Source: a virus. From it: 64,000 bases of DNA. The position numbers were made by a program, and so were the translations under genes. The number at the start of each line of letters is the position of its first letter. Within the stretch, counting starts at the first letter, position 1. The notes beneath the pieces are model-generated. The model ran no database searches and was not told the origin of the DNA. It worked only from the letters and a program-made list of their open reading frames with translations. Of this stretch, positions 3,066 through 23,132 are shown piece by piece. Location of the stretch: the IMG/VR virus record IMGVR_UViG_3300035698_027961, positions 1 to 64,000 of that record; one strand, given 5' to 3'.

Positions 3066-4397
3066 TTACATTACCTTTGCTGCGTAAGTTGCGAGTGCGC
3101 TTCGTTCACCCTTGATCAATCTAATATGACCAGAGTGAGGAAACTCCTTGAATAGCTCAACTACCGAAGCCAGTCCGGATGACTTTTGGTCAACCGAAGG
3201 TGAGTCAATTTGCTCAAGGTCTCCAAGTAGAATAATTTTTGAGTTATCGCCCATCCTAGTTAAAAGAGCTTTGGCCTCATGATGAGTAATGTTCTGTGCC
3301 TCGTCAACAATAAAGATACAATCAGGCAAAGTTCTTCCTCTAACATAGGCTAGAGACTCTAATTCAATTATACCTTTTTCAATCATTCTATCGATATAAT
3401 CCATTCCCTTACCAGCAGTAATAACACTCAAGTTATCAAATATTGGCTGAAGCCACGGACGAACCTTTTCTTCTTTTGTTCCGGGTAGGAATCCGATATC
3501 CTTACTGGTGCTCTGAGCGGGACGAGCAATGACCAATTTCTTATACTTCTTAGTGTGAATCATACTCATAGCTGAAGCAATAGCGAGCAGCGTCTTTCCT
3601 GAGCCGGCCATTCCAGATATAGAAACCATCTGAATCGCTGGGTCCAGAAGAAGCTCTAAGGCGATAACTTGCTCCTTAGACCTTGGTATAATTCCCTCGA
3701 CTTTGATATCTCTATCTCCGGCATACTTTAGCTTCTTGACAACGTTATTATCGCAAGCAATGGCTAGAGCACTCTTCTTACCAGACTTTAGCACAACTCC
3801 CTGATTTGGATATAGCTTTGGAAAGAAATCATCTTCGCTAAGATGAAGCTCGCCATTAGCATAGAACTCATCAACCATATCAATATCTGCATCGACAGTT
3901 ATCAGGCCATCGTAGAAAATATCATGATCTCTTAAGCCACCCTTAGAAAAGCTCTCAGCGGGTATTCCAAGCGTGTCGCATCTAACCCGAAGTGATATGT
4001 CTCTGCTTACTACGACGGCCTTCTGACCGTCTTTGATGAGCTTTGCAGCTACAGATATGATACGGTTATCATTAGTGTCTGGAAAATTACCGCTAAGCAA
4101 ACCTATATCCGAAAAGTTTGCGACAAAAATTGTCTGTTTGCCATCAACCTTAACGCCTTTAACTAGGCTTCCCTGCTCTCTTAGGCCGTCTAGATACTTA
4201 TTTACATATCTACAGTTGCCTCCGACAGTATCCATTCTAACCTTAAGGTTGTCGAGCTCTTCGAGAACCTCTAGGGGAATATAAACATTATGACCCTCAA
4301 AGCTATGTATCGATTCGCCATGATAAGCGAGAACCGATGTGTCAAGAACATAATTTTTTCTCTTCGAGGAAGGTGATGGCATATAATAAATCTCCAC
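3066..4397 (-). CDS. phoH: PIN-PhoH fusion (PhoH2/YlaK-like ATPase)
   Basis: N-terminal PIN domain (YVLDTSVL, EELD, NDNRII, SRDISLR). PhoH domain with Walker A GMAGSGKT, IGFLPG, RGRT, DEAQN and LGDLEQID. Confidence 0.92.
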   Translation of the reverse strand: MEIYYMPSPSSKRKNYVLDTSVLAYHGESIHSFEGHNVYIPLEVLEELDNLKVRMDTVGGNCRYVNKYLDGLREQGSLVKGVKVDGKQTIFVANFSDIGLLSGNFPDTNDNRIISVAAKLIKDGQKAVVVSRDISLRVRCDTLGIPAESFSKGGLRDHDIFYDGLITVDADIDMVDEFYANGELHLSEDDFFPKLYPNQGVVLKSGKKSALAIACDNNVVKKLKYAGDRDIKVEGIIPRSKEQVIALELLLDPAIQMVSISGMAGSGKTLLAIASAMSMIHTKKYKKLVIARPAQSTSKDIGFLPGTKEEKVRPWLQPIFDNLSVITAGKGMDYIDRMIEKGIIELESLAYVRGRTLPDCIFIVDEAQNITHHEAKALLTRMGDNSKIILLGDLEQIDSPSVDQKSSGLASVVELFKEFPHSGHIRLIKGERSALATYAAKVM

Positions 4398-4955: not shown

Positions 4956-5945
4956 ATGAACAAAGAATTATATGAACTTATGAGTTTTTTAATTAAAAAT
5001 AATGAAAAAGATTACGCGCATATGGTTGCATCATTAATTAAAAATGCAAATAAAATTATGAGCAGAGAAGAACTTATGGCCAGCCAAAAACTTGAAGGGA
5101 AGTTACAATATATGATTAGACATATCGCAAAAGATATGCTCGGATTTGAAAATAATGATGATATTGATGAATTCACGGAAAGTGTGTATCATGAAGTTTA
5201 TGATTTTGTTTCTGAATTTATACTTAATTGTTCTTCTAATTTTGGGCTTGAGAACAAAATCGATCTTAATGAAGAGGCTGAGGATATGTCCGCATATTGG
5301 CTATTTTTAAATTATGACTTGAAGCCGATCGTCCTGCACGCCCTCCGACAAGGAGGCCTAATTAGCGGCGATCATGATATTGAAGACTCAGATTATATTA
5401 GCTCCATATTTGCTGAATACTTCTCATACCAGGAATACGCATTACCCAGAGATAAAAATATTTATATGATTAAGTCGCTAGACGACATTAAGAAAGCCTC
5501 TGAGGCAGCGGAAGTTAGATATAATAACTATATCAGAAGCAGCCTGGTTAAGCAGGATGATAATCTTGTCTGGATCTTTGAGAACGAAGATTGGAAGGTT
5601 TGTGAGGCTCACTCTTACTTTGCGGCCGTCAAGGCCGGATGGGGAACTAAGTGGTGTACCACAGATAGAGTTAACGGAGAGGCAGATTTCATGAATCACT
5701 ATAGGCCGGACTCACCTTTGGTTATTTTTATGAGCAAAAATAACCCTAAAGAAAAATATCAAGCTACATATTGGGAAAATGCGTTTCATGATGCTGAAGG
5801 TAATCCGGTTCGGGATAAGTATAAGATATACAACCTTTCAAAATTGATTGCCGACAGACCCTACGTTGATTTAAACGCGATAAAAAATAGGCTTGGAATA
5901 GATGTTGGCGGTGGCTATGTATCTTCCGAGAAAATTAATCCTTGA
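4956..5945 (+). CDS. Hypothetical phage protein with GTKWCT motif
   Basis: 329 aa, GAGG RBS. C-terminal W...EAHSY.AA...GWGTKWCTT...PLVIF...KYQ block of a kind common in large-phage hypothetical proteins. Confidence 0.65.
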   Translation: MNKELYELMSFLIKNNEKDYAHMVASLIKNANKIMSREELMASQKLEGKLQYMIRHIAKDMLGFENNDDIDEFTESVYHEVYDFVSEFILNCSSNFGLENKIDLNEEAEDMSAYWLFLNYDLKPIVLHALRQGGLISGDHDIEDSDYISSIFAEYFSYQEYALPRDKNIYMIKSLDDIKKASEAAEVRYNNYIRSSLVKQDDNLVWIFENEDWKVCEAHSYFAAVKAGWGTKWCTTDRVNGEADFMNHYRPDSPLVIFMSKNNPKEKYQATYWENAFHDAEGNPVRDKYKIYNLSKLIADRPYVDLNAIKNRLGIDVGGGYVSSEKINP

Positions 5946-7419
5946 CCCAAAGCCTCTGGCCGGCATCGTATATCTTATACCACCCTTTCTCTTCGGCGTA
6001 TTCTCTTTCCGACAAACACCTGGGATCCATATTGGCTCGGCAGCTGAGCCTATTAAATGTATTAGCGCCATCGGTCCACTTCCACCCCAGGGTATCTCTC
6101 TGCTTCTCAAACCCGAGAGCCTTAAGATAGTTACCTGTCCCATACCTTAAGTCAGCCCAGTAATGAATTGGTAGACCATGAAGATTTTGAATTGCATAAA
6201 GCATCTTGCCTGCCCCTCCAACGACGGTCGTATTGTTTTTAGAGCAGAATCTTTCGATTTTAATTTTATCTTTATAGACTCGATAAGACATCGCCGAGAC
6301 CAATTCTCCGTCATGAAATAAACCAAAAGTTCTGGCATTAACCGATCCCATTAGATGGTTGGTCTCAAAGAACCATGAGTATACATCTCTTGGGACGTTA
6401 TCCAGTTTTGTCTTTCTGGCGAAGATTCTTTTATTCTTGCCAAGTACATTATTTATCATTGATTGTATTATATCAAATTTGTTGAGCACCTCATCTTCCC
6501 TGAACTGAATTATTCTAAGGTTGTCCAGCCCCTCGTAATCAGCCCTCATCTTATAATGATATCGCTTATCTTTATTTTTTTCTGAGTGCCAATAAAGTCC
6601 ATCAACGTTGATAGCAGTTCTATTATCTAATTTGAAGTCTGGCCGATATCTTAACAATGGGTACTTAGAGGCATCAAACAGATAATTATAAGGTTTTAAT
6701 CCTGAACGACTGGAGAATATATTTTCTAGAGCCGTATGCTTAGCTTTAAAATTCTCAGTTGCAGATATAATATCTTTATCGGAAAGGCCATCCGAGATCT
6801 TATAGATTGAGGCAGGAGATATCCCGGAGTCAAGACACATTTCATTTATTGTCTTTCCATTTTCAAGAACCTTAATGCTACCATTCTCAATCTTAGTTTG
6901 AATTACAGATTCTTTAATCTTTAAATTCTTCATCGGGTGCTCTACGCCATATTTACCAAGGCATGTCTCTATGGCTTTATTATTTAGCTCTTCTACATTT
7001 CTTGGATTAGCTGCACCATAGCGCTCAATCATGGTCTCTTTTATCTTCTCTTTAACTTCCTCTGATGAAAAGGCGGACTCCGAACCAAATCTTACAAGAT
7101 TCGACTTCTTCATCTTCTCGACTCTGGATTTCTGAAGAATAGCCGAATCTTTTACTATAGAATTATTTCTTAGAGCGCTAGCTATAGTTGGGTCAGTAAC
7201 GCCAGCTATAGCAGCAATCTCTGTGGTCGTCATATTCAGCTCTATATAGTGATGATGCAGCCACTTGTAATTTAAATAATCTTTAGATTTAGATAAGGAA
7301 AATTCTTTAACTTTACTAGATATATATTTATGGCTTTTATTGGTTATTACTGCAATTTTATTAATGCTAAGATTTTGCTCGATATATAGTTTTTGAAGCC
7401 TATCTTTATCTAAAGTCAA
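5935..7419 (-). CDS. Putative free-standing homing endonuclease (HTH repeats + Vsr/PD-(D/E)xK-like domain + GNAT-like C-terminal domain), copy 1
   Basis: HTH-like repeats (LYIEQNLSINKIA, WLHHHYIELNMTTTEIA), ..RYG.. repeats, YRPDF...AINVDGLYWHS and IIQFREDE. Lies directly after nrdB. Confidence 0.7.
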   Translation of the reverse strand: MTLDKDRLQKLYIEQNLSINKIAVITNKSHKYISSKVKEFSLSKSKDYLNYKWLHHHYIELNMTTTEIAAIAGVTDPTIASALRNNSIVKDSAILQKSRVEKMKKSNLVRFGSESAFSSEEVKEKIKETMIERYGAANPRNVEELNNKAIETCLGKYGVEHPMKNLKIKESVIQTKIENGSIKVLENGKTINEMCLDSGISPASIYKISDGLSDKDIISATENFKAKHTALENIFSSRSGLKPYNYLFDASKYPLLRYRPDFKLDNRTAINVDGLYWHSEKNKDKRYHYKMRADYEGLDNLRIIQFREDEVLNKFDIIQSMINNVLGKNKRIFARKTKLDNVPRDVYSWFFETNHLMGSVNARTFGLFHDGELVSAMSYRVYKDKIKIERFCSKNNTTVVGGAGKMLYAIQNLHGLPIHYWADLRYGTGNYLKALGFEKQRDTLGWKWTDGANTFNRLSCRANMDPRCLSEREYAEEKGWYKIYDAGQRLWVKD

Positions 7420-7431
7420 TTTATACCTCGT

Positions 7432-8394
7432 TTACCAGTTCCATTCTCCACTCATTCCATCTGCACTATAGTCAGTCACCCTTTTCTCAAAAAAGTTAGA
7501 TAAGCTGTCTCCGTTCAGAACCCAGTCTAGCCATGGTAGAGGATTCTCCTCGGTTTTAAAGATTGGCTTTAATCCAATTTGATTTAATCTTCTATCAGCA
7601 ATGAATCTAATGTATTGCTTGACTTCGGCACCTGAAAGGCCGGGAGCATCTCCAAGCTCATAAATAAGATCGATCAGTCCATCTTCTAGCTCAACTGCCT
7701 TTTCAAACATCTCGTAGATACTTGACTTAAATTTATCATTGACAATTCTCGGATGCTCTTTACAGTACTCTAGAAATAATTTGGAGATCCCCTGAACGTG
7801 AAGGGTCTCATCTCTGATGGACCACTCAACAATCGTACACATTCCCTTCATCTTTCCAAACCGTTGGTAGTTTAGCAACATAACGAATGCGGAAAATAAA
7901 CTCATTCCTTCGTTGCAAACCGATTGAGCTAGAGCCAGTCCGAGTCCGGTTGCCGTCCTAACATCATTCTTCTGCATAAACTCAATCTTTGAAACCATCT
8001 CTTTGTACTTTAGAAAAGCTCGATACTCAGACTCATGCATTCCCAGGGTATCATTCAGTAATGCATAAGCCCTCTGATGAATTGCTTCCCTGGAGGCAAA
8101 ACTCATAAGCATTTGCCTGACTTCATGATTCTTAAACTGAGGAAGAAATAGGTCGCAGTAATTAGACGCAACCTGACAGTCCATCTGAGTAAACAATCTT
8201 AAAATCTGAGTAATGTGTTCCTTCTCGACATCATTAATCTCTCCACCCTTCCACTGATTAACGTCTTCCTGAAGTTCGGCCTCCCACTCTCCCCAAAAAA
8301 CTTTATCTGATTGAATTGCATACTCAATTGCCCAGGGGTATTGAAATGGACGATATGACTCTGCGTGATTTACTAGCCCTGGCATGCTAAGCAC
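7432..8394 (-). CDS. nrdB: Ribonucleotide reductase class I beta subunit
   Basis: FTQMD, REAIHQRAY (radical Tyr), NEGMSLF, IRDETLH, NFFEKRVTDY. The true start is probably the ATG at 8385 (MPGLV). Confidence 0.95.
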   Translation of the reverse strand: MLSMPGLVNHAESYRPFQYPWAIEYAIQSDKVFWGEWEAELQEDVNQWKGGEINDVEKEHITQILRLFTQMDCQVASNYCDLFLPQFKNHEVRQMLMSFASREAIHQRAYALLNDTLGMHESEYRAFLKYKEMVSKIEFMQKNDVRTATGLGLALAQSVCNEGMSLFSAFVMLLNYQRFGKMKGMCTIVEWSIRDETLHVQGISKLFLEYCKEHPRIVNDKFKSSIYEMFEKAVELEDGLIDLIYELGDAPGLSGAEVKQYIRFIADRRLNQIGLKPIFKTEENPLPWLDWVLNGDSLSNFFEKRVTDYSADGMSGEWNW

Positions 8395-10151
8395 TCCTCT
8401 TCTTCTGACTTTACGTAATCTGTTAAACTTGCTTTTTCCATTTTCTGACTAACTTTATCTGGGTCTACAGATGATGTCGTTCTTAGGTAGTAAAGACCCT
8501 TAAGGCCCTGCTTCCAGGCCTGAAGATGAACCTTCATAACGAACGACTTATCGGTTCCGTTAGGGAAGAATAGATTGACCGACTGACCCTGGCAGATAAA
8601 TGGCTGCCTATCTGCCGCGTGCTGAACCACCCATTGTTGATCGATTTCAAATGCGGTCTTAAAGACTAACTTTTCATACTCGGATAGAAACTCTAGATGT
8701 TGAGCGCTTCCTGCGTTAGTGATGATTGAGCTCCAAACCTGGGCTCTTTCATCCTCCGGAACTCTGTCATTAACAATCTTTTCTAGATATGGGTTGGTAA
8801 CTAAGTGAGAGCCAATTCTAGTTCTGTGAGTATATGCGTTTGACTTTCTGGGCTCAATTGATGGAGACGTGCAAGCAATAATTGAGCTGTTGGCATTCGG
8901 AGCTATTGCTAGAAGGTGGCTATTTCTTTTATTGTCTAGATCTCCAGCATCAGGATAGGTTCCTCTTTCTTCGGCTAGCTCGACAGAAGAAGCGATAGCG
9001 TCTCGATTAATTCGCTCAAACATTTCCTTATTGATTCCGGTGGCTATCGCGGACTCCCATGGAACTCCCAGCTTCTGAAGGTAAGCGTGAAATCCCATCG
9101 CGCCCAGGCCGAGGGATCTTTCCCTTTGGGCGCTATAAGTAGCTCTACTTAGTGTATCTGGAGCGTTTTCAATAAATGCGTCAAGAACATTATCTAGCAT
9201 TCTAATCATATCCTTGACTAAATTGGTATCTTTCCACTCGTCATACTTTTCTAAGTTAAGGCTGGAAAGGCAGCATACAGCTGTTCTGTCAGCGGATGTC
9301 GGGAGATGAATCTCATTGCACAAATTTGAACCGTTAATCTTTAAGCCCAGAGCCTTAAGTGATGCCGGAAGATGCTTGTTTGCAGTATCAATAAAGTTTA
9401 AGTATGGCTCGCCGGTCTTAAACCTGGTCTCAATTATTCTCTGCATTAAATGACGCGCCTTAACAGCCTCCTTTACTTCTTTGCTGGCAGGATCAATTAG
9501 ATCCCACATATCTCCATTTACTACGGCCTTCATAAAATCATCAGTCAGGTTGACTGCGTTATGAAGGTTAAGGCACTTACGATTCGGGTCTCCACCGGTT
9601 GGGTCTCTGAAGTTAATAAACTCTATGATATCAGGATGGGAAATATCCATATAGGCGGCGTAAGATCCCTTTCGCGTCTTTCCCTGACGAAATGCGTTCA
9701 TATCCGCATCTACTGTTTTTAGGAATGGTATAGGGCCAGGAGACTTATCAGAAATAGATCTGACTTCGCTCCAGTGGCCGCCAACTCCGCCACCCTTGAC
9801 GCTGAGCCATCTTAGCTCCGCACTATGATCGATGATTCCTTCTAAATTATCCGGAACCATGCTTAGAAAACATGATATTGGAAGAGCCTTCCATTTTCCG
9901 CCCGGTGCCGGAGAGTTTGATAAGATGGGGCTAGAGAACATAAAATAGCCTAAAGAAACATAGTCATAAATTCTTTGAGCAAATTCCAAATCACCCTTGG
10001 AGGTAGATGCTGAAGCTCTAGCAAGACCCTCCTGGATGGATTCACCATCAGCTAAGTAGTATTTCCTTAATAGAGTTTGGGAAAATTCATCTAAAAGTGA
10101 ATCTCTATCCTGTTCAATTTTTATTCCATAAATGTAGTTATCCGTAGACAA
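8373..10151 (-). CDS. nrdA: Ribonucleotide reductase class I alpha subunit (no ATP cone)
   Basis: PISCF, GGGVG, SNLCNEI, APNANSS, GLYYLR and C-terminal CLAC. TTG start with GGAGG RBS. Confidence 0.96.
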   Translation of the reverse strand: MSTDNYIYGIKIEQDRDSLLDEFSQTLLRKYYLADGESIQEGLARASASTSKGDLEFAQRIYDYVSLGYFMFSSPILSNSPAPGGKWKALPISCFLSMVPDNLEGIIDHSAELRWLSVKGGGVGGHWSEVRSISDKSPGPIPFLKTVDADMNAFRQGKTRKGSYAAYMDISHPDIIEFINFRDPTGGDPNRKCLNLHNAVNLTDDFMKAVVNGDMWDLIDPASKEVKEAVKARHLMQRIIETRFKTGEPYLNFIDTANKHLPASLKALGLKINGSNLCNEIHLPTSADRTAVCCLSSLNLEKYDEWKDTNLVKDMIRMLDNVLDAFIENAPDTLSRATYSAQRERSLGLGAMGFHAYLQKLGVPWESAIATGINKEMFERINRDAIASSVELAEERGTYPDAGDLDNKRNSHLLAIAPNANSSIIACTSPSIEPRKSNAYTHRTRIGSHLVTNPYLEKIVNDRVPEDERAQVWSSIITNAGSAQHLEFLSEYEKLVFKTAFEIDQQWVVQHAADRQPFICQGQSVNLFFPNGTDKSFVMKVHLQAWKQGLKGLYYLRTTSSVDPDKVSQKMEKASLTDYVKSEEEECLACQG

Positions 10152-10369: not shown

Positions 10370-10912
10370 TTATTCATCTTTTTTATCGGGGTTGAATTGC
10401 CCCGTGTACTCTCCGTTCTTCCAAACTCGAACCATATTTGTCTGCTCAGAAAGAGTAAAAACAGCAAGAACATCCTTCCTGGTTGAGAAGGATGCCGCTG
10501 TAATATGTCGGGTTCCGGTACCTTCAGGAATTCCTAATGTTGGATCATCAACAGTTAGATAAACTTTGTCACCTATAACTTGACCATCCTGATTAATAAT
10601 GATGGCTCCATCATCACCCGAGTCAAATATTGTAACGCAATCTTCTTTAAACTGCGGAAAGTTAACATTAACATAAATATCCATCTTATCATTTGTTAAC
10701 TTTCTCATGCCCTCGACCGAAGTTGTATTGGCAGAACCGAAAACACCCAGGACTATCATCGCCCCTACCTTATTCCCCTCTTTAAAATTCTTTTCAGATA
10801 TCTCTGTTAAGTATGTATATATTTTCTTCTCCGTTTTCTCTCTAGCTAAATTAAGCTGAAATGAAAAATCAATTACCGGCCCCCTTCCTGGCGCTACGTC
10901 TTCGGATTCCAT
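10370..10912 (-). CDS. Stand-alone diadenylate cyclase (DisA_N/DAC domain)
   Basis: GAMIVLG, DDGAIII (catalytic DGA), GTGTRHITAA (RHR-like, third residue Ile) and VFTLSEQTNMVRVWKNG. No transmembrane or DisA HhH domain. Confidence 0.85.
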   Translation of the reverse strand: MESEDVAPGRGPVIDFSFQLNLAREKTEKKIYTYLTEISEKNFKEGNKVGAMIVLGVFGSANTTSVEGMRKLTNDKMDIYVNVNFPQFKEDCVTIFDSGDDGAIIINQDGQVIGDKVYLTVDDPTLGIPEGTGTRHITAASFSTRKDVLAVFTLSEQTNMVRVWKNGEYTGQFNPDKKDE

Positions 10913-10929
10913 AAAACCCCCTCGATGTT

Positions 10930-10937
10930 ATAATACC
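10930..10937 (-). promoter_or_regulatory. Putative -10-like promoter motif GGTATTAT upstream of the DAC gene
   Basis: One of five intergenic GGTAHTAT copies (10930, 16350, 23086, 27978, 44354), all on the minus strand upstream of gene blocks. Confidence 0.5.
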
Positions 10938-10986
10938 CCAGGGGTCAGACTGCGTTAGCTCAAACTCAAATGAGGACTGAATTTTG

Positions 10987-12378
10987 TCAATACTTTAGAA
11001 ATCCCTCGTGGTTAAATCCATAGCTGATGGAGTAGCCCCTTTCGTCTTTTGTTTTGATAATTACTTGACCTCCCCATATTTGCTGCAGATACTCAGCAAC
11101 CTTCTCAATATGCTTCGGGTCCAGTGTTCCAACGTCAGCGCTCTCGTGAATAAGCCTTAGTCTTTCCTGGCTTGCTGAATCAATATAAATTAAAGGAGTT
11201 CTGTAGTTATATATTTTTGCAGCTTGGCTCTCAACTACATCTTTTGCACTTCTGCTTTCAATTTTAATATATTCATCTTTATTTCTGTCGTAATCTGTCT
11301 TATAAGTAAACATTTCAAGCCTATCAACAATTTCTTGAGTAAGGTACTTTCTTAGAAATGATATGTCGTCCTCTTCTGAGCAAACCTCTAAGATCTTTTC
11401 AAAACCGGTTATGATTGACTCGCCATGCTTATACTTTAGATCCCACTTCTCTTTTATATCATTCAAAATAGTGAAGCCAAGAAAATAAGGATTTATATCG
11501 AGCTTACTTCCTCCCGGCTGAACAACTCTTTCATGAATCTTGACGAACTCGATATACTCTGATGGCGATAGATGATCTTCTCCCATCAGATACATTAGCT
11601 CAGCATGAATATAGCTAGCTAAGCCCTCGTTCATAATCTTTGTATAGTATTGCGGATAGAAATAAAATGACTCCTCTCTAATAATATTAAAGATGTCCTT
11701 TTCCCATGGCTCTGCGCTAGAATAATTGGCTAAAAACCACAGCAGATCATATTCTTTTGATGGCGGGAAACTATCATTCATAATCTTTTCTTCGTATCCG
11801 AGATTATCAATTCCATATAGATCATCAAACTCACCCTGTTCCTTTTTCTGAAGAACCTTTTTCTTAGGCGCATACTTGGGACGATGAACACCCTTATGCC
11901 AGTCTATATTCTTCTCTAGAGCGAAAGCAATGTCCATAATTCTCTCTACTTTCTCAATTCCATATTGGGATATGTACTCCTCAACCTTTTCCGCCCTCTC
12001 TGCGGCACGCATAACCATGCCACGGTCTGTCTTTTTAAATAGATAATTATTTTTAAAGAAATGGTTATGACCGAGAACGTGAGCTATAACCATGGTGTTG
12101 GCAATATCAGAATTTGACTCAAGAAGAAAAGCTCGGCAGGGATCTGAGTTTAGCACTAATTCATATACCTTAGACGTTCCCATGGTTCCCTGAATCTTCT
12201 GATACTCATAGCTCTGTCCGTAACTCCAGTGCCTAGCTCTAACCGGAAGTCCGTAGCTCATAATCTCTAAAAGAACTTCTTCCGGAACTACTTCCCAGAT
12301 GGTCTCAAACATATCTAGACCCATCTCTTTTGCCTTCTCAACAAACCATTCAGCCCTATCTGCTAAAACTTTCTTCAT
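10987..12378 (-). CDS. spoVR: SpoVR/YcgB family protein
   Basis: YGLPVRARHWSYG, YELVLNSDP, AHVLGHNHFFKNN, YFYPQ..TKIMNEG.ASY.H and NPYFLG. Confidence 0.93.
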   Translation of the reverse strand: MKKVLADRAEWFVEKAKEMGLDMFETIWEVVPEEVLLEIMSYGLPVRARHWSYGQSYEYQKIQGTMGTSKVYELVLNSDPCRAFLLESNSDIANTMVIAHVLGHNHFFKNNYLFKKTDRGMVMRAAERAEKVEEYISQYGIEKVERIMDIAFALEKNIDWHKGVHRPKYAPKKKVLQKKEQGEFDDLYGIDNLGYEEKIMNDSFPPSKEYDLLWFLANYSSAEPWEKDIFNIIREESFYFYPQYYTKIMNEGLASYIHAELMYLMGEDHLSPSEYIEFVKIHERVVQPGGSKLDINPYFLGFTILNDIKEKWDLKYKHGESIITGFEKILEVCSEEDDISFLRKYLTQEIVDRLEMFTYKTDYDRNKDEYIKIESRSAKDVVESQAAKIYNYRTPLIYIDSASQERLRLIHESADVGTLDPKHIEKVAEYLQQIWGGQVIIKTKDERGYSISYGFNHEGFLKY

Positions 12379-13553
12379 TATTTCTTGTCCTTCTTGGAGT
12401 TGTCAATGTTGAAAAACTTTTTAAGACCTGCGTAAACATCGTCATTCTTTTTAAACTGCATCGACATAAATCTGGTTCTTTTAATGTTCTCATTAAAGTA
12501 ATTTGATAGAAGCTTTTCGGGCCTAAACCATGCGCTATCAGTACTCTTATCCAACATTACTTCGCCATAACCCATGGCCCTGACTAGTGGCATTAGCTTC
12601 TCAGCATACTCTAAACATATAATATTGTCATCTGAATAGTTATCACCATCACTGAACTCGAAAACATAATTATTCCACTCATCAGGAGAATGATGAGTTT
12701 TTATATGGTCATAGGCGAACTTGAATGATGAACTGCAGCATGTTCCGCCAGACGCACTAATGGTAAAGAATTCTTTCTCAGTGACTTCAAAAGCTTTAAT
12801 ATCATGAGCCACAAATACCAATTCTATTTTCTTATACTTTCTTCTTAAAAATTGAACCATCCAGAAGTAAAAAGACTTAGCTATATGAGTCTTTTCCTTA
12901 TCCATGGAGCCGCTTCTATCCATCATTAAGTATATTGCTGCATTAGAATGATAATCTTTCTCTTCTTCCCAATCTTTAAACCTTAAATCTTCTTTTTTGA
13001 AGACTCCAACCTTAGGATTGCCTTTGGCCGCGTTTCTCTTTAAGTTTTCTTTCAAACTTCTCCTGATATCTATGCTGGAAAAGGGACCCTTCTTTGAAAT
13101 AGAATTAACTTCATCATTAGTAATCTCTACCTGCGTGTTATTCTTAGGATCAATCCACGGAAGGTCTAGCTCATCCAGCATAATATTGACAAGCTCGTCT
13201 ACAGTAATTTCGGCTTCAAAGATTCTTTCACCATCTTCATTGCCGGCAGGACCATCTTGGTCTCCGTTACCTTTCTTGATTTTAAACTTATCACCTGGCT
13301 GTCCAGCTAGCCCCTGACCAGTTCCCGCTTCATCATTAATTTTCCCGTACTTAAGCCTATACTTATCAAGGAATTTGATTGGCACCTTTATCTTTTTGTC
13401 GCCGTCAGACTGAATGATGTCGTACTCTGTAATGAGCTGCTTACCATTCGTTCTGATAGCCTTCTCGACCAGCTCTTTGTGCCGGTCTGAGTCTCTCTTG
13501 CCTCTCTTTTTAAGGCCCCAGATATCTGAAAGGCTATCATACTTTTGAGTCAT
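12378..13553 (-). CDS. yhbH: YhbH/YeaH (DUF444) vWA-domain protein
   Basis: DSDRH, GTGQG, MIDAS DRSGSM, FVAH, SGGT and FSDGDN. Lies between prkA and spoVR. Confidence 0.92.
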   Translation of the reverse strand: MTQKYDSLSDIWGLKKRGKRDSDRHKELVEKAIRTNGKQLITEYDIIQSDGDKKIKVPIKFLDKYRLKYGKINDEAGTGQGLAGQPGDKFKIKKGNGDQDGPAGNEDGERIFEAEITVDELVNIMLDELDLPWIDPKNNTQVEITNDEVNSISKKGPFSSIDIRRSLKENLKRNAAKGNPKVGVFKKEDLRFKDWEEEKDYHSNAAIYLMMDRSGSMDKEKTHIAKSFYFWMVQFLRRKYKKIELVFVAHDIKAFEVTEKEFFTISASGGTCCSSSFKFAYDHIKTHHSPDEWNNYVFEFSDGDNYSDDNIICLEYAEKLMPLVRAMGYGEVMLDKSTDSAWFRPEKLLSNYFNENIKRTRFMSMQFKKNDDVYAGLKKFFNIDNSKKDKK

Positions 13554-13565
13554 TATAGTTCCTTG

Positions 13566-15470
13566 TTACTTAGAGGCCATTAGGGAGCTTACATATCGAA
13601 GCAGCTGGTTAGCACTTTCAGTATTGTACTGATACTTTTCACATAGGGTTTTGATTACAACGTTGATCTTCTTGAGCTCTTCCTCATCAGGATTTCTGGA
13701 AGATACTGTCATCTTAATAACAGCGGAACGCTCTTGAAATAGCTGCTTCTCTAGGGCATCCTTAAGAGCCGGGTGATCTTGATAATTGGAGTTGCTTCTA
13801 AGCATCTTGCGGAATATCTCCTGACGGAAAGACCTCTTTCCGGATTCGGAAATTCCAACCTTCTCTTCGATGCTTCTCATCAGTGGCTCGCTTGGCTCCA
13901 CTGTATTTCCCCATTCATCAGACACCTGACCTCCGTCTAGGAATGCTTCGGCGTGCTGCATATAATTGGATAGAAGATTCTTAATTTCATCCTCAAAGTT
14001 AACAAAGAAAGCCTTCTGAACATCATTCTTTGCCATCTTCTCGTACTCCTCAAGAACGTATAGAAGAACATTCTCAAGTCTTTCGGATTCCTTCTTATCT
14101 ACCTTCGGATTGCTCTTAAGGCCATCCTTCAGTGATCGAACGATATCTAGAGGAGTGATTGATGATAGATTATCCTCAGATAGCTTTGAAGAAATTCTAT
14201 TGATAACGTATCTAGGTGAAACTCCAACCATTCCCTCATCATCAAATTCTTTTTTAAACTTGGAAGACTCAGCCTTAGTAAAGCCCTCAACGTCCTCATC
14301 ATTATACATCTTCATCTTCTTGAGAAGTGATAGTCCCTGGTTATTAGATTCCTTAAGGCGAGATAAAATTGCAAACATTGCAGCGCAGGTTAGGGTGTGA
14401 GGAGCAATATGCCTTCCTTCAAAGTTTGCCTGGTTAATCAACTTCTCATAGATCTTGACTTCACTGTCAACAGAAAGATTATATGGAACCTTAACAACAA
14501 TAGTTCTATCGTGAAGTGCCTCCATCTCATCCTTGGCTAGAAATCTTTCAAACTCTGTAAAGTTGGTATGAGCTACGACAAACTCATCAGCCCAGATAAG
14601 AGGAAATCTTCCGGTCTTAATATTCTTTTCTTGGGCCAGGGTTAGAAGAACATACAGAAACTTCTGATCAACCTTAAGCATCTCAACGAATTCCATAATT
14701 CCACGGTTAGCTACGTTGAGTTCTCCATCAAAGCGGTAAGCTCTAGGGTCTGATTCGGAGCCATATTCTCCAACGGTACTTAAATCAATGGAGCCAACTA
14801 ACTCTGAAATATCTTGGCTCTTTTTATCGGAAGGAACAAAAGTACCAATCCCGATTCTTCCGCGCTCAGAGAAGAACGTTCTTTTGACTGGCAACTTCAT
14901 AAAGTCACCATGGTACTTCTCCTTCAGAACTAGATCCATAATAGGGCTCAGGTTGCCGTCAATCTTGATGCCATATTCACTGTGAAATGAATGCCTCAGA
15001 TCTTCAGGAATTGCGCACAATGGGTCCTCATGCATTGGAGACTCGGAAAGTGAAAATGTTGCTCCTTCGTCTGTCTTGGAAAATTGCTCAAGGCCCCTCT
15101 TTAGAAGAATGGCTAGCTGAGACTTTCCGGAAGAGGTTGGTCCGTACATTAATAGAATTCTGCGGCTAACTTCACTGCCAGATGCCGCAGCTCTAAGATA
15201 GGACATTAGATCATGAATTGGCTCATCAACTCCGAAGAGGTCTTCTTCGAAGAATTTGTACTTTACAATGTTTCCGGATTCATCTCTATCAACTCCCCTG
15301 GAATCAATCATCCTGAGTACTCTTTGGTGTGCAGTCATATGAATCTTTGGATTATTGGTGACAATTTCTATGTAATCCTTTAGTGTTCCTGACCACTCAA
15401 GGCTCTTACTAGCCTCAGCGTGATCGCTAAGCCTAGATAAAAAATTATCGAATTTACTTATTTGAGCCAT
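13566..15470 (-). CDS. prkA: PrkA/YeaG family AAA+ ATPase (annotated serine kinase)
   Basis: Walker A GPTSSGKS, SPMHEDPL, QDISELVG, DPRAYRFDGELNVANRGIMEFVEMLK, EALHDR and GVSPRY. Confidence 0.95.
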   Translation of the reverse strand: MAQISKFDNFLSRLSDHAEASKSLEWSGTLKDYIEIVTNNPKIHMTAHQRVLRMIDSRGVDRDESGNIVKYKFFEEDLFGVDEPIHDLMSYLRAAASGSEVSRRILLMYGPTSSGKSQLAILLKRGLEQFSKTDEGATFSLSESPMHEDPLCAIPEDLRHSFHSEYGIKIDGNLSPIMDLVLKEKYHGDFMKLPVKRTFFSERGRIGIGTFVPSDKKSQDISELVGSIDLSTVGEYGSESDPRAYRFDGELNVANRGIMEFVEMLKVDQKFLYVLLTLAQEKNIKTGRFPLIWADEFVVAHTNFTEFERFLAKDEMEALHDRTIVVKVPYNLSVDSEVKIYEKLINQANFEGRHIAPHTLTCAAMFAILSRLKESNNQGLSLLKKMKMYNDEDVEGFTKAESSKFKKEFDDEGMVGVSPRYVINRISSKLSEDNLSSITPLDIVRSLKDGLKSNPKVDKKESERLENVLLYVLEEYEKMAKNDVQKAFFVNFEDEIKNLLSNYMQHAEAFLDGGQVSDEWGNTVEPSEPLMRSIEEKVGISESGKRSFRQEIFRKMLRSNSNYQDHPALKDALEKQLFQERSAVIKMTVSSRNPDEEELKKINVVIKTLCEKYQYNTESANQLLRYVSSLMASK

Positions 15471-15480
15471 TAAAATAACC

Positions 15481-15774
15481 TCACTTTTTATATGGATTTA
15501 ACTTGTCACCGTAGATATCATCCATGGCTCGCCTATCGCCAGACCGGACCTTCTCTACAGTTTTTCTAACTTCTTCTTTTGCGTCCATCATTATCTGGTC
15601 GCGGTCCTTGTCAACAGTGCCGCTGACAGCAATTATCTTCTGATATAGTACTCCATTTTCACAAACGGTGCATTTTATTTTCTCTTTTTTTAATCTGACA
15701 AATTCAGGAACGCTGTAATGTCTGGATTGTATATCGTTGCATGATTCGCAACAGAATGTGTATTTAGGCATCAT
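15481..15774 (-). CDS. FmdB-like zinc-ribbon protein
   Basis: MMPKYTFCCESC...KCTVCENG (MP.Y.Y.C..C...C..C pattern). Start moved from 15789 to the ATG at 15774. Confidence 0.7.
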   Translation of the reverse strand: MMPKYTFCCESCNDIQSRHYSVPEFVRLKKEKIKCTVCENGVLYQKIIAVSGTVDKDRDQIMMDAKEEVRKTVEKVRSGDRRAMDDIYGDKLNPYKK

Positions 15775-15952
15775 CGTCTCCGGACACAAATATTATCTTA
15801 TCATTCTCAATGATTAACTTTCCAGATAAAGAGAGATCCCTTAGTATTTTCTTTTTAAACTTAGGGTCAGTAATTGAAACAGTAAGTTCTAAAGAGCCAT
15901 CCTCTTCATTGAAGAGGATGTTTTTAATCTTGCCTACATTATTTTTCTGCAT
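15764..15952 (-). CDS. Hypothetical protein
   Basis: 62-aa ORF overlapping both neighbours. Confidence 0.6.
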   Translation of the reverse strand: MQKNNVGKIKNILFNEEDGSLELTVSITDPKFKKKILRDLSLSGKLIIENDKIIFVSGDDDA

Positions 15953-16253
15953 TTTCTATATAATGCCTAATGGCCTTAATTATATGAGCATTGTCTGAAT
16001 CAAGCATCCAAAGAAATTCGCTCTTGTCCAAAATTTTAATAGCGCTAGAAATACCAATCAGAAAGTCTCTCTCGAAGAAGACGCACGGGGTAATGAATTG
16101 ATTCACATGTTCATTATTATTACTGCTGCTTTCTTCGTTTGCATATGCTAGCCTAATACAGCTCTTATTTATTGATACTACAACATACTTCTCTTCTCCG
16201 ATTTCAATCAAATCATGGGTTTTAAGCTTGCTGATTTTTATTGTTTCTTCCAA
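15939..16253 (-). CDS. Hypothetical protein
   Basis: 104-aa ORF, first gene after the promoter motif at 16350. Confidence 0.6.
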   Translation of the reverse strand: MEETIKISKLKTHDLIEIGEEKYVVVSINKSCIRLAYANEESSSNNNEHVNQFITPCVFFERDFLIGISSAIKILDKSEFLWMLDSDNAHIIKAIRHYIENAEK

Positions 16254-16349
16254 TTTATATGGCCTTCGGTTGTGGGTTTATTAAAATTACTTAATTGCGA
16301 ACACCTAATATGTTAGACGCGTCCTACATGATACATCGTGCATCTCTAT

Positions 16350-16357
16350 ATAGTACC
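16350..16357 (-). promoter_or_regulatory. Putative promoter motif GGTACTAT heading the prkA-spoVR block
   Basis: Member of the recurring GGTAHTAT set. Confidence 0.45.
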
Positions 16358-16421
16358 CGCACTTTCAAATAAGCTATAATTTTTATCACATTGGGTAATG
16401 AGATAATCACAGCAAAATATG

Positions 16422-16455: not shown

Positions 16456-17820
16456 TTAACAACCATTTTCGTCACCATTATCATCAACCCAATTATCTGG
16501 AATACTAATCACCTTTGATTTCTCAAATTGCTTGAGTAGTTTAAACTCCCCTTTCGCACCATCTCTGTTCTTAACCACATGCAATGACATATCATCGATA
16601 AGGTGCTCGTCTTCTCGCTGCTCAATTAAAATAACAATGTTTGAGTTATCTCCAATCATCTTGCTTCGGCCAAGGTCATTTAAATCATTGCCGCCATTAT
16701 TCTTGAGCGCCTTATTCTTAGCCTTCCTCTGGGCCGCTGTTAATACAGCCATATTCTTGCTTCGGCAAAATTCATGTAGGTCTGCGGCGGTATGCCCAAC
16801 CTCTAGCCAGTCCTGTCCGAAGTCCCTATTCGGCTTCATAATTCCCAGGTAGTCGACTACCACTAAATCAGGCTCGAACTCTGATATGATGCTATCAAAG
16901 CGGGCTTCCAAATCCAATGTGCGTGAGCCGCGAGGCATGTCGACAATATAAAAGTGCTTATCGTAATTTTTCTGAAATTCCAGAGAAGCCTGCCACCTAG
17001 TTCGTTCTTCATCAGTTAAAAACCCCCTCATTAATGCTTTATGTCTTATGCTGGCAATGCAGGCATCGATTCTTTGCTCTAGCTGCTCCTTACTCATTTC
17101 CAACGTAAAATAGATAACGTTCTTACCATTGGCGAAGTTTTGCTTATTCTTATTGTACGCTATATTGCCACCAAGCCAAGCATTGATTGCATAATTCATC
17201 ATCAGCAGTGACTTACCCGACGAGCTCTCTCCCGAGATAACCATCATCTCTGATTTTTTAATTCCAAACGTATATTCATCAAGCTCCGGATATCCAGATA
17301 GAACACCAGATATAATATCCGGGTTGTTGACTGTGAAGGTATAGTTATTTAATCTAGTATCAGCCGACTTGGTAAAGTCACCTTCAGCGAATACGGCCGA
17401 CCTTCTCAGTCTCTCAATCTTGGATGTTGTCTTTAAGAGATTTGAGTTAAAGTCCTTTATGTCATCGTCATTATTTATCTCCTCTGCAGACTCGGCTAAT
17501 TTCTTAGCCAGTCTTTTATTGAAGCGATTTCTAACCTGGTCGACGTAATAAAGTATCTCGTTCTCTTCGCACTCTACGTCTTCAACTATTCCTGCAAGCT
17601 GAACCATATCGATGTCTTCCGCCAAGTCTTCCTGCAGAATCTTAAAGGAAGGTGGAGTCTTGTATCTTTCAAAATAATTAGTTATGGTTTCTAGCATCGG
17701 CTTGTAATCATAGTCTATCGCTTCTTTGAGAAGCTTTCCATCGATTTCTCTGGATACCTTGTTGTATTCTACCGACCCTTTCATCATCCATGAGAGTATT
17801 TTGTTATCTGCAACTGACAT
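16456..17820 (-). CDS. dnaB: DnaB-like replicative helicase
   Basis: Walker A GESSSGKS, YFTLEMS, VVVDYLGIM, TAAQ and VVKNRDG. Confidence 0.92.
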   Translation of the reverse strand: MSVADNKILSWMMKGSVEYNKVSREIDGKLLKEAIDYDYKPMLETITNYFERYKTPPSFKILQEDLAEDIDMVQLAGIVEDVECEENEILYYVDQVRNRFNKRLAKKLAESAEEINNDDDIKDFNSNLLKTTSKIERLRRSAVFAEGDFTKSADTRLNNYTFTVNNPDIISGVLSGYPELDEYTFGIKKSEMMVISGESSSGKSLLMMNYAINAWLGGNIAYNKNKQNFANGKNVIYFTLEMSKEQLEQRIDACIASIRHKALMRGFLTDEERTRWQASLEFQKNYDKHFYIVDMPRGSRTLDLEARFDSIISEFEPDLVVVDYLGIMKPNRDFGQDWLEVGHTAADLHEFCRSKNMAVLTAAQRKAKNKALKNNGGNDLNDLGRSKMIGDNSNIVILIEQREDEHLIDDMSLHVVKNRDGAKGEFKLLKQFEKSKVISIPDNWVDDNGDENGC

Positions 17821-19268
17821 TATTTTATCTCCAGTGTATATAGTCTCTGCCCGGCATCATAAATTTTAAACCATGAAAGCTCTTCGGCATATGCTCTTTC
17901 GCTTAATTTCCTAGAATCCATATTAGCACGGCACCTCAAACGATTATAGGTTTTATTAAAATCAGTCCACTTCCATCCGAGAGTGTCTCGCTGGTGAACA
18001 AATCCATAATTTTTCAAATGACATCCTGTTCCGTACCGAAGGTCTACCCAGTAGTTTACCCTCTTGGGGGCTAATTTTTTGATACAGTATTTTAGAAGTT
18101 TTGAAAATCCACCAACTACCAAATGATCTAGCTTGGTACTAACTCGCTCTACCTTTAGGTCGTCTCCAATCATTTTGTATGAGAAAACCATAACCAGTTC
18201 GTTTTGATAAGTTAGGCCGATGTGCTTAGACTTGATTGTTCCCATCAGATGGGTTGACTCCAGGAAGTCATTGGCTTCTGACTGAGATAAGCTAACTATC
18301 TCTGTCTTTCTGGCGAATATTCTAGCCGAATGACCCAGGTGATTGTTTACCACCGATTTAACAATATTCATCTTATAATTAATTTGGTCTTCGGTAAATT
18401 GAAATATTCTTAGCCCTAAATCCTCATATTCCTTTCTCATTTCAAAATGATATTTAGCATCTGACTTGTGCGCTGATGAATGCCAGTATAGGCCATCAAC
18501 ATTTGCCGCTGAGTAGGGGGTTAGCTTAAAGTCCGGCCGATACTTTAAGTGCGGATATGACAAGCAATCAAATGCCTTATTATAGAGTGGAAGATCTATG
18601 GTCTGAGAGAATATGTTTTCGATATTTGTTATTTTGGAAGAGTAATTTGCCACATACTCTAAAAACTGCTGCTCGGTATAGTTCGGATTTTTATAGATCC
18701 ACCTATAGAGTATGATATTCGATATTCCAATTTTGGATGCCCACTGGCACAAGCTTTTCTCACAAACAACTATCGTCTCAGAATTTTCATGATGAGCTTT
18801 GGAACCGAGATAGGTTCTGCTGCTATACTTCTTAAGATTGGTGACTTCTCTTTTTCTCTTAACCGATTCAGAAAGATTAAAGTGTTTAACTTTATATTTT
18901 TTTAAAGAAAGCTTCTTAACTCTAGACTTATAAGCTGTAGACTTATCTTCATCTTCTTTGCGAAAATTAAATTTATATAAATAATCAAAGATTGTCCCTC
19001 TATTTACACCGCATGATTCTGCAATTTCTACCGCAGTTTTATTCTGCTCGATATACTGGTTATATAGCCAATTATAATTTGTATAATTTGCTTTGGACAC
19101 TTTCTTGTTATTTTTAGATAGTCCGAAGCGGCTCTTATACCTAGACAGGGTCGACTCACTATAGCCAAACTCTTCGGCTATTTTCTTTATAGTCTTATTT
19201 TTAGTGACGTATTGTTCTTCAAGCCACTCCCTTACCCGGTATTTTTCTGAAGTCTTTTCCTGAGACAT
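17820..19268 (-). CDS. Putative free-standing homing endonuclease, copy 2 (paralogue of 5935-7419)
   Basis: Same architecture as copy 1. YRPDF...ANVDGLYWHS and a shared C-terminus RDTLGWKWTD...NRL.CRANMD.R.LSER.YAEE..W.KIYDAGQRL. Overlaps both dnaC and dnaB. Confidence 0.7.
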   Translation of the reverse strand: MSQEKTSEKYRVREWLEEQYVTKNKTIKKIAEEFGYSESTLSRYKSRFGLSKNNKKVSKANYTNYNWLYNQYIEQNKTAVEIAESCGVNRGTIFDYLYKFNFRKEDEDKSTAYKSRVKKLSLKKYKVKHFNLSESVKRKREVTNLKKYSSRTYLGSKAHHENSETIVVCEKSLCQWASKIGISNIILYRWIYKNPNYTEQQFLEYVANYSSKITNIENIFSQTIDLPLYNKAFDCLSYPHLKYRPDFKLTPYSAANVDGLYWHSSAHKSDAKYHFEMRKEYEDLGLRIFQFTEDQINYKMNIVKSVVNNHLGHSARIFARKTEIVSLSQSEANDFLESTHLMGTIKSKHIGLTYQNELVMVFSYKMIGDDLKVERVSTKLDHLVVGGFSKLLKYCIKKLAPKRVNYWVDLRYGTGCHLKNYGFVHQRDTLGWKWTDFNKTYNRLRCRANMDSRKLSERAYAEELSWFKIYDAGQRLYTLEIK

Positions 19269-23038: not shown

Positions 23039-23085
23039 CTAAAACACCAATAGCTTTGCCAAGTAATTCGACAAAGCATTGGTTT

Positions 23086-23093
23086 ATAATACC
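23086..23093 (-). promoter_or_regulatory. Putative promoter motif GGTATTAT heading the replication block
   Basis: Member of the recurring GGTAHTAT set. Reads TGgTATTAT, like an extended -10 element. Confidence 0.5.
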
Positions 23094-23132
23094 ATTTTTT
23101 AAAAGATTTGCTTATTTTTTCTGTGTGATAAG

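Follow-up and report, generated by a model that had tools for sequence, protein, structure and literature searches.

Why should a phage carry, as one block, the three genes prkA, yhbH and spoVR that cellular organisms keep together, with a gene for a diadenylate cyclase (DAC), an enzyme that makes cyclic di-adenosine monophosphate (c-di-AMP), directly behind them? The question is raised by a 64,000-nucleotide stretch of viral DNA (the window), the first 64 kb of the 79-kb IMG/VR record IMGVR_UViG_3300035698_027961, which derives from an uncultured salt-lake jumbo phage. Open reading frames (ORFs), Pfam domains and motifs confirm the original prediction, made from the letters of the window, of an intact and tightly packed prkA-yhbH-spoVR trio that is preceded by a zinc-ribbon gene (znr), followed 74 nt later by the DAC gene, and situated between dnaB and nrdAB. 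All of the genes that it named are present, but it missed a conserved 62-residue gene, orf62, ahead of znr (Table 1). As set out below, the operon orf62-znr-prkA-yhbH-spoVR-DAC is conserved within a clade of jumbo phages from marine and salt-lake habitats.

A Conserved Operon in a Clade of Jumbo Phages

The genes of the operon all lie on the minus strand, with dnaB upstream and nrdAB downstream. From orf104, which follows a 202-nt intergenic region behind dnaB, through spoVR, every junction is either overlapping or at most 12 nt long: the end of orf104 overlaps the start of orf62 by 14 nt, orf62 and znr overlap, the gaps between znr and prkA and between prkA and yhbH amount from their coordinates to 10 and 12 nt, and yhbH and spoVR share 1 nt. 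A 74-nt spacer separates spoVR from the DAC gene, and 218 nt separate the latter from nrdA.

Scanning IMG/VR with PrkA returned 52 loci, six of them close (67-75% identity), and the order dnaB, orf62, znr, prkA, yhbH, spoVR, DAC is kept in all six; the position of dnaB upstream of the module is kept in all relatives. PrkA is the most conserved gene product of the neighborhood, with 60-75% identity to the window across relatives, the other values being NrdA (59-66%), SpoVR (49-64%), YhbH (45-60%), DAC (36-55%) and DnaB (33-55%). For the closest pair of relatives, the nonsynonymous divergence (dN) is 0.06-0.15 and the synonymous divergence (dS) is saturated for most genes, so that dN/dS can be read as upper bounds only; the two short genes with computable dS gave 0.09-0.16. 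As judged from their sequences, the operon genes are shown to be intact, tightly packed, under purifying selection and co-inherited in a monophyletic phage clade.

Table 1. Positions of the genes discussed, in the window and, for intein-interrupted genes, in the named relatives
Feature	Position	Strand	Basis
nrdB, class I ribonucleotide reductase (RNR) small subunit	7432-8394	-	Pfam
nrdA, class I RNR large subunit	8373-10151	-	Pfam
DAC, 180 aa	10370-10912	-	Pfam DAC (PF02457) 2.9e-13, 49.9 bits vs cut-off 27
SpoVR/YcgB	10987-12378	-	Pfam SpoVR 2e-103
YhbH/YeaH (DUF444), vWA-type metal-ion-dependent adhesion site (MIDAS)	12378-13553	-	Pfam DUF444 3e-80
PrkA/YeaG-family AAA+	13566-15470	-	Pfam AAA_PrkA 2e-113, PrkA_C 2e-61
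Znr, FmdB-type zinc ribbon	15481-15774	-	CxxC...CxxC and charged C-terminal helix
orf62, 62 aa, fold without family assignment	15764-15952	-	ORF and relatives
orf104, first gene past the dnaB-proximal intergenic region	15939-16253	-	ORF
dnaB, DnaB-type replicative helicase	16456-17820	-	Pfam DnaB_C 5e-32
PrkA with intein, relative L062	3213-6242
SpoVR with intein, relative L056	7309-9963
SpoVR with intein, relative L059	7310-9919
SpoVR with intein, relative L062	7432-9918
SpoVR with intein, relative L066	7419-9992

Linkage of the Diadenylate Cyclase to the Trio

A scan of IMG/VR with the single DAC sequence found no relatives, and an alignment-based scan returned 18 contigs of 21-395 kb, some of them complete. 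In 16 of these the complete trio immediately precedes the DAC gene, while one contig starts inside SpoVR and another inside DAC; the linkage read from the window is therefore present in the related phages wherever upstream sequence exists. Even the most divergent DAC contig (36% identity in DAC, 60% in PrkA and 33% in DnaB) has the same gene order. Elsewhere the pairing is absent: 45 other viral contigs that carry the trio at ~30% identity and 80 cellular prkA loci have no DAC at a distance of up to 10 kb, and none is found anywhere in the records of phages phiYS40 and RsoM2USA or in three large trio-bearing IMG/VR contigs. The cellular loci were tested both with a profile of the phage DAC family and with a jackhmmer search seeded with two bacterial CdaA and one archaeal DAC, the latter to make up for the poor sensitivity of the phage profile to CdaA. 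In three cellular genomes that hold the PrkA homologues nearest to the phage protein among the matches listed, the distance between the DAC gene and prkA is ~80 kb or more. Being present in the DAC-bearing contigs and absent near prkA in the cellular and other viral loci, the DAC-trio link is a stable, clade-specific feature, and a literature search found no description of it.

Stable linkage might still join genes that work apart, the DAC being an independent accessory that travels with the trio and whose c-di-AMP acts alone on the host, for example on its osmotic control in saline water ahead of lysis, or by interfering with nucleotide-based defence. The 74-nt spacer with a promoter-like motif ahead of the DAC gene would suit such an arrangement, as would the fact that the other phages which took up the trio independently do without a DAC, and the finding of no DAC fused to a trio protein. 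However, no exception to the adjacency of spoVR and DAC is seen even among deeply diverged relatives, although the sequence beyond DAC changes (to nrdAB, a distant RNR or, over 10 kb, neither of them), the spoVR stop and DAC start overlap or are at most 11 nt apart in four relatives (54-77 nt in the others and here), and the alignment-based scan of IMG/VR found no member of the phage DAC family away from the trio. We consider an independently acting DAC somewhat unlikely, though less so than the other alternatives weighed below.

A Diadenylate Cyclase Without Regulatory Domains

The AlphaFold2 (AF2) model of the 180-residue DAC (predicted local distance difference test, pLDDT, 80.6) consists of one long N-terminal helix (residues 17-45) and a DAC fold, and the protein has no sensor, membrane or DNA-binding domain. 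Foldseek matched the model to DacM, CdaA and DisA (E 6.5e-8, probability 1.0). The motifs DGA, GTRH(I) and SEQT are present in the window, and in an alignment of 30 family members D101, G102, T134, R135, H136, S141-F-S143 and T153-L-S-E156 are invariant, as are several residues of the N-terminal helix, with A103 and G133 nearly so and the last motif following the pattern SE(E/Q)T. The family comprises 95 metagenomic members, mostly of ~165-210 residues with a few shorter fragments; their contigs, some of them from Tara Oceans samples, reach 422 kb.

Assignment to a described DAC subfamily was not supported. The best NCBIfam match is the haloarchaeal DacZ (NF041371), but at 45.6 bits against a cut-off of 430, and over profile positions 136-268 only, which is the C-terminal half of the model, identity as a DacZ equivalog was rejected; CdaA and DisA were likewise rejected on scores of 20-25 bits against cut-offs of 189-201 and for want of the N-terminal transmembrane helices of CdaA and the C-terminal helix-hairpin-helix DNA-binding domain of DisA. 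The phage profile in turn gives 41 bits to an archaeal Thermoplasmata DAC and 16 bits to a bacterial CdaA. With the archaeal DacZ/CdaZ enzymes the phage protein has in common the helix before the DAC domain and a non-Arg residue at the third position of the RHR motif (Ile in the phage DAC, and non-Arg also in an archaeal DAC), whereas the N-terminal PK_C-like sensor domain of DacZ is missing from it. Judged by sequence and model, the protein combines the fold of a c-di-AMP synthase with its catalytic motifs and has lost all regulatory domains; it looks like a DacZ-type catalytic domain minus its sensor, and is probably constitutively active.

A search for longer or fused forms, in itself weak evidence, returned no fusion to any trio protein. 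The only longer relative found, the 458-residue metagenomic protein P0097, combines DAC with PK_C and PTS_EIIA_2 in a DacZ-like sensor architecture. Comparison of the DAC with the INPHARED phages by megablast and tblastn gave no match, and a literature search on diadenylate cyclases of phages, jumbo phages or huge phages found nothing relevant. If active, the enzyme would be a phage-encoded c-di-AMP synthase, of which we found none described in the literature.

PrkA and YhbH

Both PrkA domains, a Lon-like ATPase and the PrkA C-terminal domain, are present, scoring 379.5 (PF08298) and 208.5 bits (PF06798) against a cut-off of 25, and the protein matches phrog_22605 at 4e-140. Its Walker A (GPTSSGKS, with K116), Walker B-like (MEFVEM) and sensor-1 (AHTN) motifs are intact and invariant in the PrkA family alignment, and the AAA+ domain gives weak profile matches to Lon. 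The PrkA family profile matched a "serine protein kinase" in the PDB (9xip) at 1e-137, and by this match a solved structure of the PrkA/YeaG family exists in entries 9xip, 9xiq and 9xir. These three recent entries together hold 30 chains of the 692-residue protein; a literature search found no paper on 9xip. As for the cellular homologues, a role in proteolysis is known for two of them only: PrkA of B. subtilis has been reported to be an ATP-dependent, Walker-A-dependent protease (PMC9512850), and YeaG of E. coli, renamed SpdA, is needed for a bulk, largely non-specific proteolysis that sets in on starvation and provides amino acids and ATP (PMC13684143).

YhbH scores 270.8 bits against DUF444 (PF04285) and retains the DxSxS signature of a MIDAS (D212-R-S-G-S216). 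Its best NCBIfam model is the sporulation-type TIGR02877 (spore_yhbH), at 354 bits and thus below the equivalog cut-off of 468. No match to the YhbH sequence was found in the PDB.

SpoVR: Fold, Metal-Site Signature and Inteins

SpoVR (PF04293, 346.7 bits) contains the motifs H100-V-L-G-H104 and N250-E251-G252, which had been read from the window as zincin-like, and a search with its predicted fold lends support to that reading. In an alignment of 35 sequences H50, H100, H104, N250, E251, G252, H258, H282 and H411 are invariant, and the AF2 model built from this alignment (pLDDT 86.3) places H100 and H104 on helix 91-110, separated by a single turn, and the NEGxA motif on helix 224-269. Nearly all of the top 50 VIA-align matches of the model are zincin peptidases or structural-genomics proteins, the zincins including DUF885, M1 aminopeptidases, M32, M3, M4/thermolysin, M49, M30 and M61, with Z between 12.5 and 6.5 over 150-200 aligned residues, values that helical models may also reach by chance. 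Foldseek found nothing for the model in the PDB at E <= 0.001, nor did the sequence profile match any solved structure there. The NEGxA motif resembles the NEG-type motif that carries the third metal ligand in M1 peptidases. The catalytic Glu of HExxH is absent from SpoVR, its position being occupied by Val here and never by a conserved Glu in the family. Because helical models can give such Z values by chance, we regard a zincin-like fold with a gluzincin-type metal-site signature as likely for SpoVR, though not proven.

The same sites are marked by inteins in relatives, the window's own genes having none. In-frame LAGLIDADG/Hint inteins interrupt SpoVR after H100 (relative L066), after H104 (L062) and after A254 within NEGxA/S (L056 and L059), and an intein in PrkA of L062 lies between H301 and T302 of sensor-1 (AH/TN). 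Chloroflexota homologues (L074, L089, L090 and L093) carry inteins at the same A254 site of SpoVR and at two further sites of PrkA, and a SpoVR intein of Chloroflexus is already listed in InBase (bioRxiv 10.1101/2025.01.02.630785). The positions of these inteins provide independent support for the HxxxH and NEGxA sites of SpoVR and for sensor-1 of PrkA and, taken together with the probable zincin-like fold, suggest H100, H104 and E251 as candidate catalytic-site residues.

Zinc Ribbon, orf62 and orf104

The znr ORF is open from a TTG at 15789, and a public record places its start at the ATG at 15771. Its Atlas feature matches are viral clusters with PF09723 (Zn_ribbon_8; score 0.92-0.93), and it is kept in nine of eleven relatives at 27-51% identity (dN/dS 0.09-0.4). 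No ORF with a CxxC pair was seen upstream of prkA in the 21 nearest cellular loci examined, among the matches listed, and by this comparison of sequences the zinc ribbon in front of prkA is a phage-specific addition. orf62 is present in ten of the eleven relatives examined (35-56% identity; dN/dS ~0.16 in the closest pair); it matched no family, and Atlas gave structural leads only and no usable feature match. Membership of orf104 in the module is doubtful because of its weak conservation, blastp having returned only two weak relatives at 23-29% identity; it has no Pfam or PHROG match.

Origin of the Module and Comparison with Known Systems

In a tree built from 52 PrkA rows with the quick mode of IQ-TREE, in which Firmicutes and Thermus lineages were not among the matches listed, the DAC-bearing phages form one clade on a long stem, with a support of 100 in the Shimodaira-Hasegawa-like approximate likelihood ratio test (SH-aLRT); the genes thus belong to a monophyletic viral clade and do not nest among those of one host. 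This clade branches within the Chloroflexota, Acidobacteriota and Thermoplasmata subfamily of PrkA and outside the proteobacterial YeaG branch. Its placement as sister to a Thermoplasmata archaeon has a support of 93, but the branches so joined are long and the position is unsafe. RsoM2USA and most other "viral" contigs fall in the proteobacterial YeaG branch, and phiYS40 forms a long isolated branch, a scattered placement from which we conclude that phages acquired the trio several times.

The cellular prkA(yeaG/spdA)-yhbH(yeaH)-spoVR(ycgB) module comprises the same three families in the same order, with the same tight packing and motifs; the nearest cellular PrkA proteins, among the matches listed, are 45-49% identical in Chloroflexota and Acidobacteriota and 42% identical in Thermoplasmata. 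Relative to it, the phage module adds orf62 and znr in front, neither of which was seen ahead of prkA in the nearest cellular loci examined, and DAC behind. Among phages, PrkA, DUF444 and SpoVR proteins have been annotated, but never studied functionally, in Thermus phage phiYS40/TMA (YS40_056, 057 and 059) and in Ralstonia jumbo phage RsoM2USA (ORF30-28), and the members of the trio have PHROG families; the gene order of phiYS40 differs from that of the window, both records lack a DAC, and both represent separate acquisitions. The claim that no characterised phage system has this combination of genes consequently holds for the DAC and zinc-ribbon additions, which are the new part, but not for the trio itself, which was already known in phages.

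Proposed Function and Alternatives

From the observed parts list, conservation and linkage we infer an activity, targets and a possible relation between DAC and trio as follows. Our preferred reading, which we advance tentatively and with slightly less than an even chance of being correct, is that the operon encodes an ATP-driven protein-turnover machine that feeds the phage, together with a sensor-less DAC that resets host K+/osmolyte and starvation signalling. PrkA (AAA+, Lon-like), YhbH (as a vWA/MIDAS adaptor) and SpoVR (zincin-like) would form the machine, much as if an FtsH-like AAA+/zincin protease had been divided among several polypeptides. Expressed together with the genes for replication and nucleotide metabolism, it would carry out a bulk degradation of the cytoplasmic protein of the host, whose products would supply phage synthesis with amino acids and energy, in the manner of YeaG/SpdA in starving E. 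coli. The DAC, being unregulated, would raise c-di-AMP in the cell to very high levels, and this, in hosts that use the messenger, would shut K+/osmolyte uptake and damp starvation signalling; the resulting osmolyte-loaded, protein-digesting cell could stay intact and translating. Znr and orf62 may serve as phage-specific adaptors or regulators. The likeness to FtsH (AAA+ fused to an M41 zincin) and to Lon is one of analogy only, that of an AAA+ ATPase with a zincin-fold domain; unlike FtsH, the phage components are separate polypeptides that include a vWA protein, carry HxxxH and not HExxH, and lack a membrane anchor. A phage copy of the whole YeaG/SpdA module suggests that in nutrient-poor waters large phages may obtain building blocks by digesting the proteome of the host, alongside the recycling of host DNA through the neighboring nrdAB, and the module is compact, portable and tractable in E. 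coli.

Several points weigh against this proposal. SpoVR, which lacks the Glu of HExxH, may be no peptidase, the protease activity of PrkA has been reported as slow, and more than one component of the cellular system is a candidate for the cutting. The effect of c-di-AMP would depend on receptors in the host, and the receptor families PstA/DarA (PF06153), RCK_C (PF02080) and CBS (PF00571) were not found in five relatives, of which four are 94-100% complete and one is partial, so the receptor would be either a host protein or of a novel type. Finally, the 74-nt gap and the promoter-like GGGTATTATA before DAC in the window allow separate transcription, and adjacency alone is no proof of a shared pathway.

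The original prediction saw in the same parts a remodelling machine with its own second-messenger source for the control of host dormancy or starvation. Its premises stand, in that the genes are phage-borne and intact and the DAC is stably coupled to them, but control of sporulation or dormancy is not the best fit. That trio and c-di-AMP drive the host into a dormant, sporulation-like or stationary state, or keep it from entering one, is suggested by the roles of prkA, yhbH and spoVR as sporulation genes in Bacillus and of yeaG and yeaH as starvation genes in E. coli, by the preference of the window YhbH for the sporulation-type model TIGR02877, and by c-di-AMP itself, which gates sporulation and germination in Bacillus. 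Yet the phage comes from a salt lake and its relatives are marine, the nearest cellular homologues among the matches listed belong to Chloroflexota, Acidobacteriota and Thermoplasmata and not to endospore formers, the trio is widespread in non-sporulators, and dormancy would normally be harmful to a lytic jumbo phage. The current molecular phenotype of YeaG/PrkA, moreover, is proteolysis (PMC9512850, PMC13684143). On the grounds of habitat, of the trio in non-sporulators and of this proteolysis, we favor the recycling of host protein over a dormancy switch, which we judge unlikely.

A third alternative keeps the machine and changes its substrate, the trio acting on phage proteins as a MoxR/vWA-like remodeller that matures or assembles parts of the virion or of the replication compartment. 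AAA+ plus vWA pairs often serve as assembly chaperones, the module lies among replication genes, and very large phages assemble in complex ways, the window having huge structural ORFs; nevertheless, unrelated phages with different virion genes acquired the trio independently, the cellular homologues act on bulk cytoplasmic protein, and no relative links the module to structural genes, which together leave this role with a low probability, below that of a dormancy switch.

Since the receptor is possibly of a novel type, it remains conceivable that the trio itself senses c-di-AMP. The PrkA-YhbH-SpoVR machine would then be the effector, and the DAC would make a private messenger that switches it on or retargets it, possibly in hosts without c-di-AMP signalling. 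This arrangement, which appears improbable to us, would, if true, bring to light a previously unrecognised class of receptors for c-di-AMP and a bulk protease gated by a nucleotide.

Viral Origin and Assembly Integrity

The contig also encodes gp6-like and gp25-like baseplate proteins and a PhoH protein, and four related contigs are phage genomes of 317-395 kb that are 94-100% complete, one of them with direct terminal repeats. Logan contigs at least 99% identical to the window occur in three further salt-lake metagenome runs from different studies, and short Logan contigs from these three runs span each junction of nrdA-DAC-SpoVR-YhbH-PrkA-Znr-orf62-orf104-dnaB, by which a chimeric assembly is excluded. 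Pfam models Terminase_6C and Gp23 gave no match in the contig and four relatives, although the Gp23 control also matched nowhere. A mis-binned bacterial fragment or chimeric contig could be suspected from the many "viral contigs" with a ~30%-identity trio that cluster with genes of proteobacteria and possibly represent DNA of hosts, and from the one close relative labelled "provirus" by IMG/VR, but with junctions spanned in independent runs, baseplate genes on the same contig, synteny in complete 317-395 kb phage genomes and a clade on a long separate branch, the chance of such an artefact is negligible.

The PhoH-like protein (phrog_2765, 1.4e-98) is encoded at 3066-4397 on the minus strand of the window, a few kb from the module; PhoH is a common auxiliary gene of marine phages.

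Other Features of the Neighborhood

None of six proteins from the locus matched any defence component of PADLOC-DB at E <= 0.01. A scan of the window at Rfam gathering thresholds gave no match, and hence neither a ydaO-type riboswitch nor a tRNA, aragorn found no tRNA over the whole contig, and a scan of the window for sigma-70 promoters and terminators gave no signal above shuffles. A GGGTAYTATA-like motif on the minus strand is located at 10929-10938, 16349-16358 and 23085-23094, in each case in an intergenic region upstream of a start, those of DAC, orf104 and a helicase, respectively; it is a possible phage promoter element, with 12 matches against 8.3 expected, a difference that is not significant.

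A 494-residue HNH-type homing endonuclease (phrog_3339, 1.7e-54), a selfish element in the nucleotide-metabolism block, is encoded on the minus strand at 5935-7419, directly after nrdB. On the same strand, at 17820-19268, a 482-residue protein with N-terminal helix-turn-helix motifs adjoins dnaB, and its homologues in relatives are located between PrkA and YhbH, between YhbH and SpoVR, after nrdB, or before dnaB. Because these positions differ among relatives and fall repeatedly within the module, the gene behaves as a free-standing, homing-endonuclease-like mobile element.

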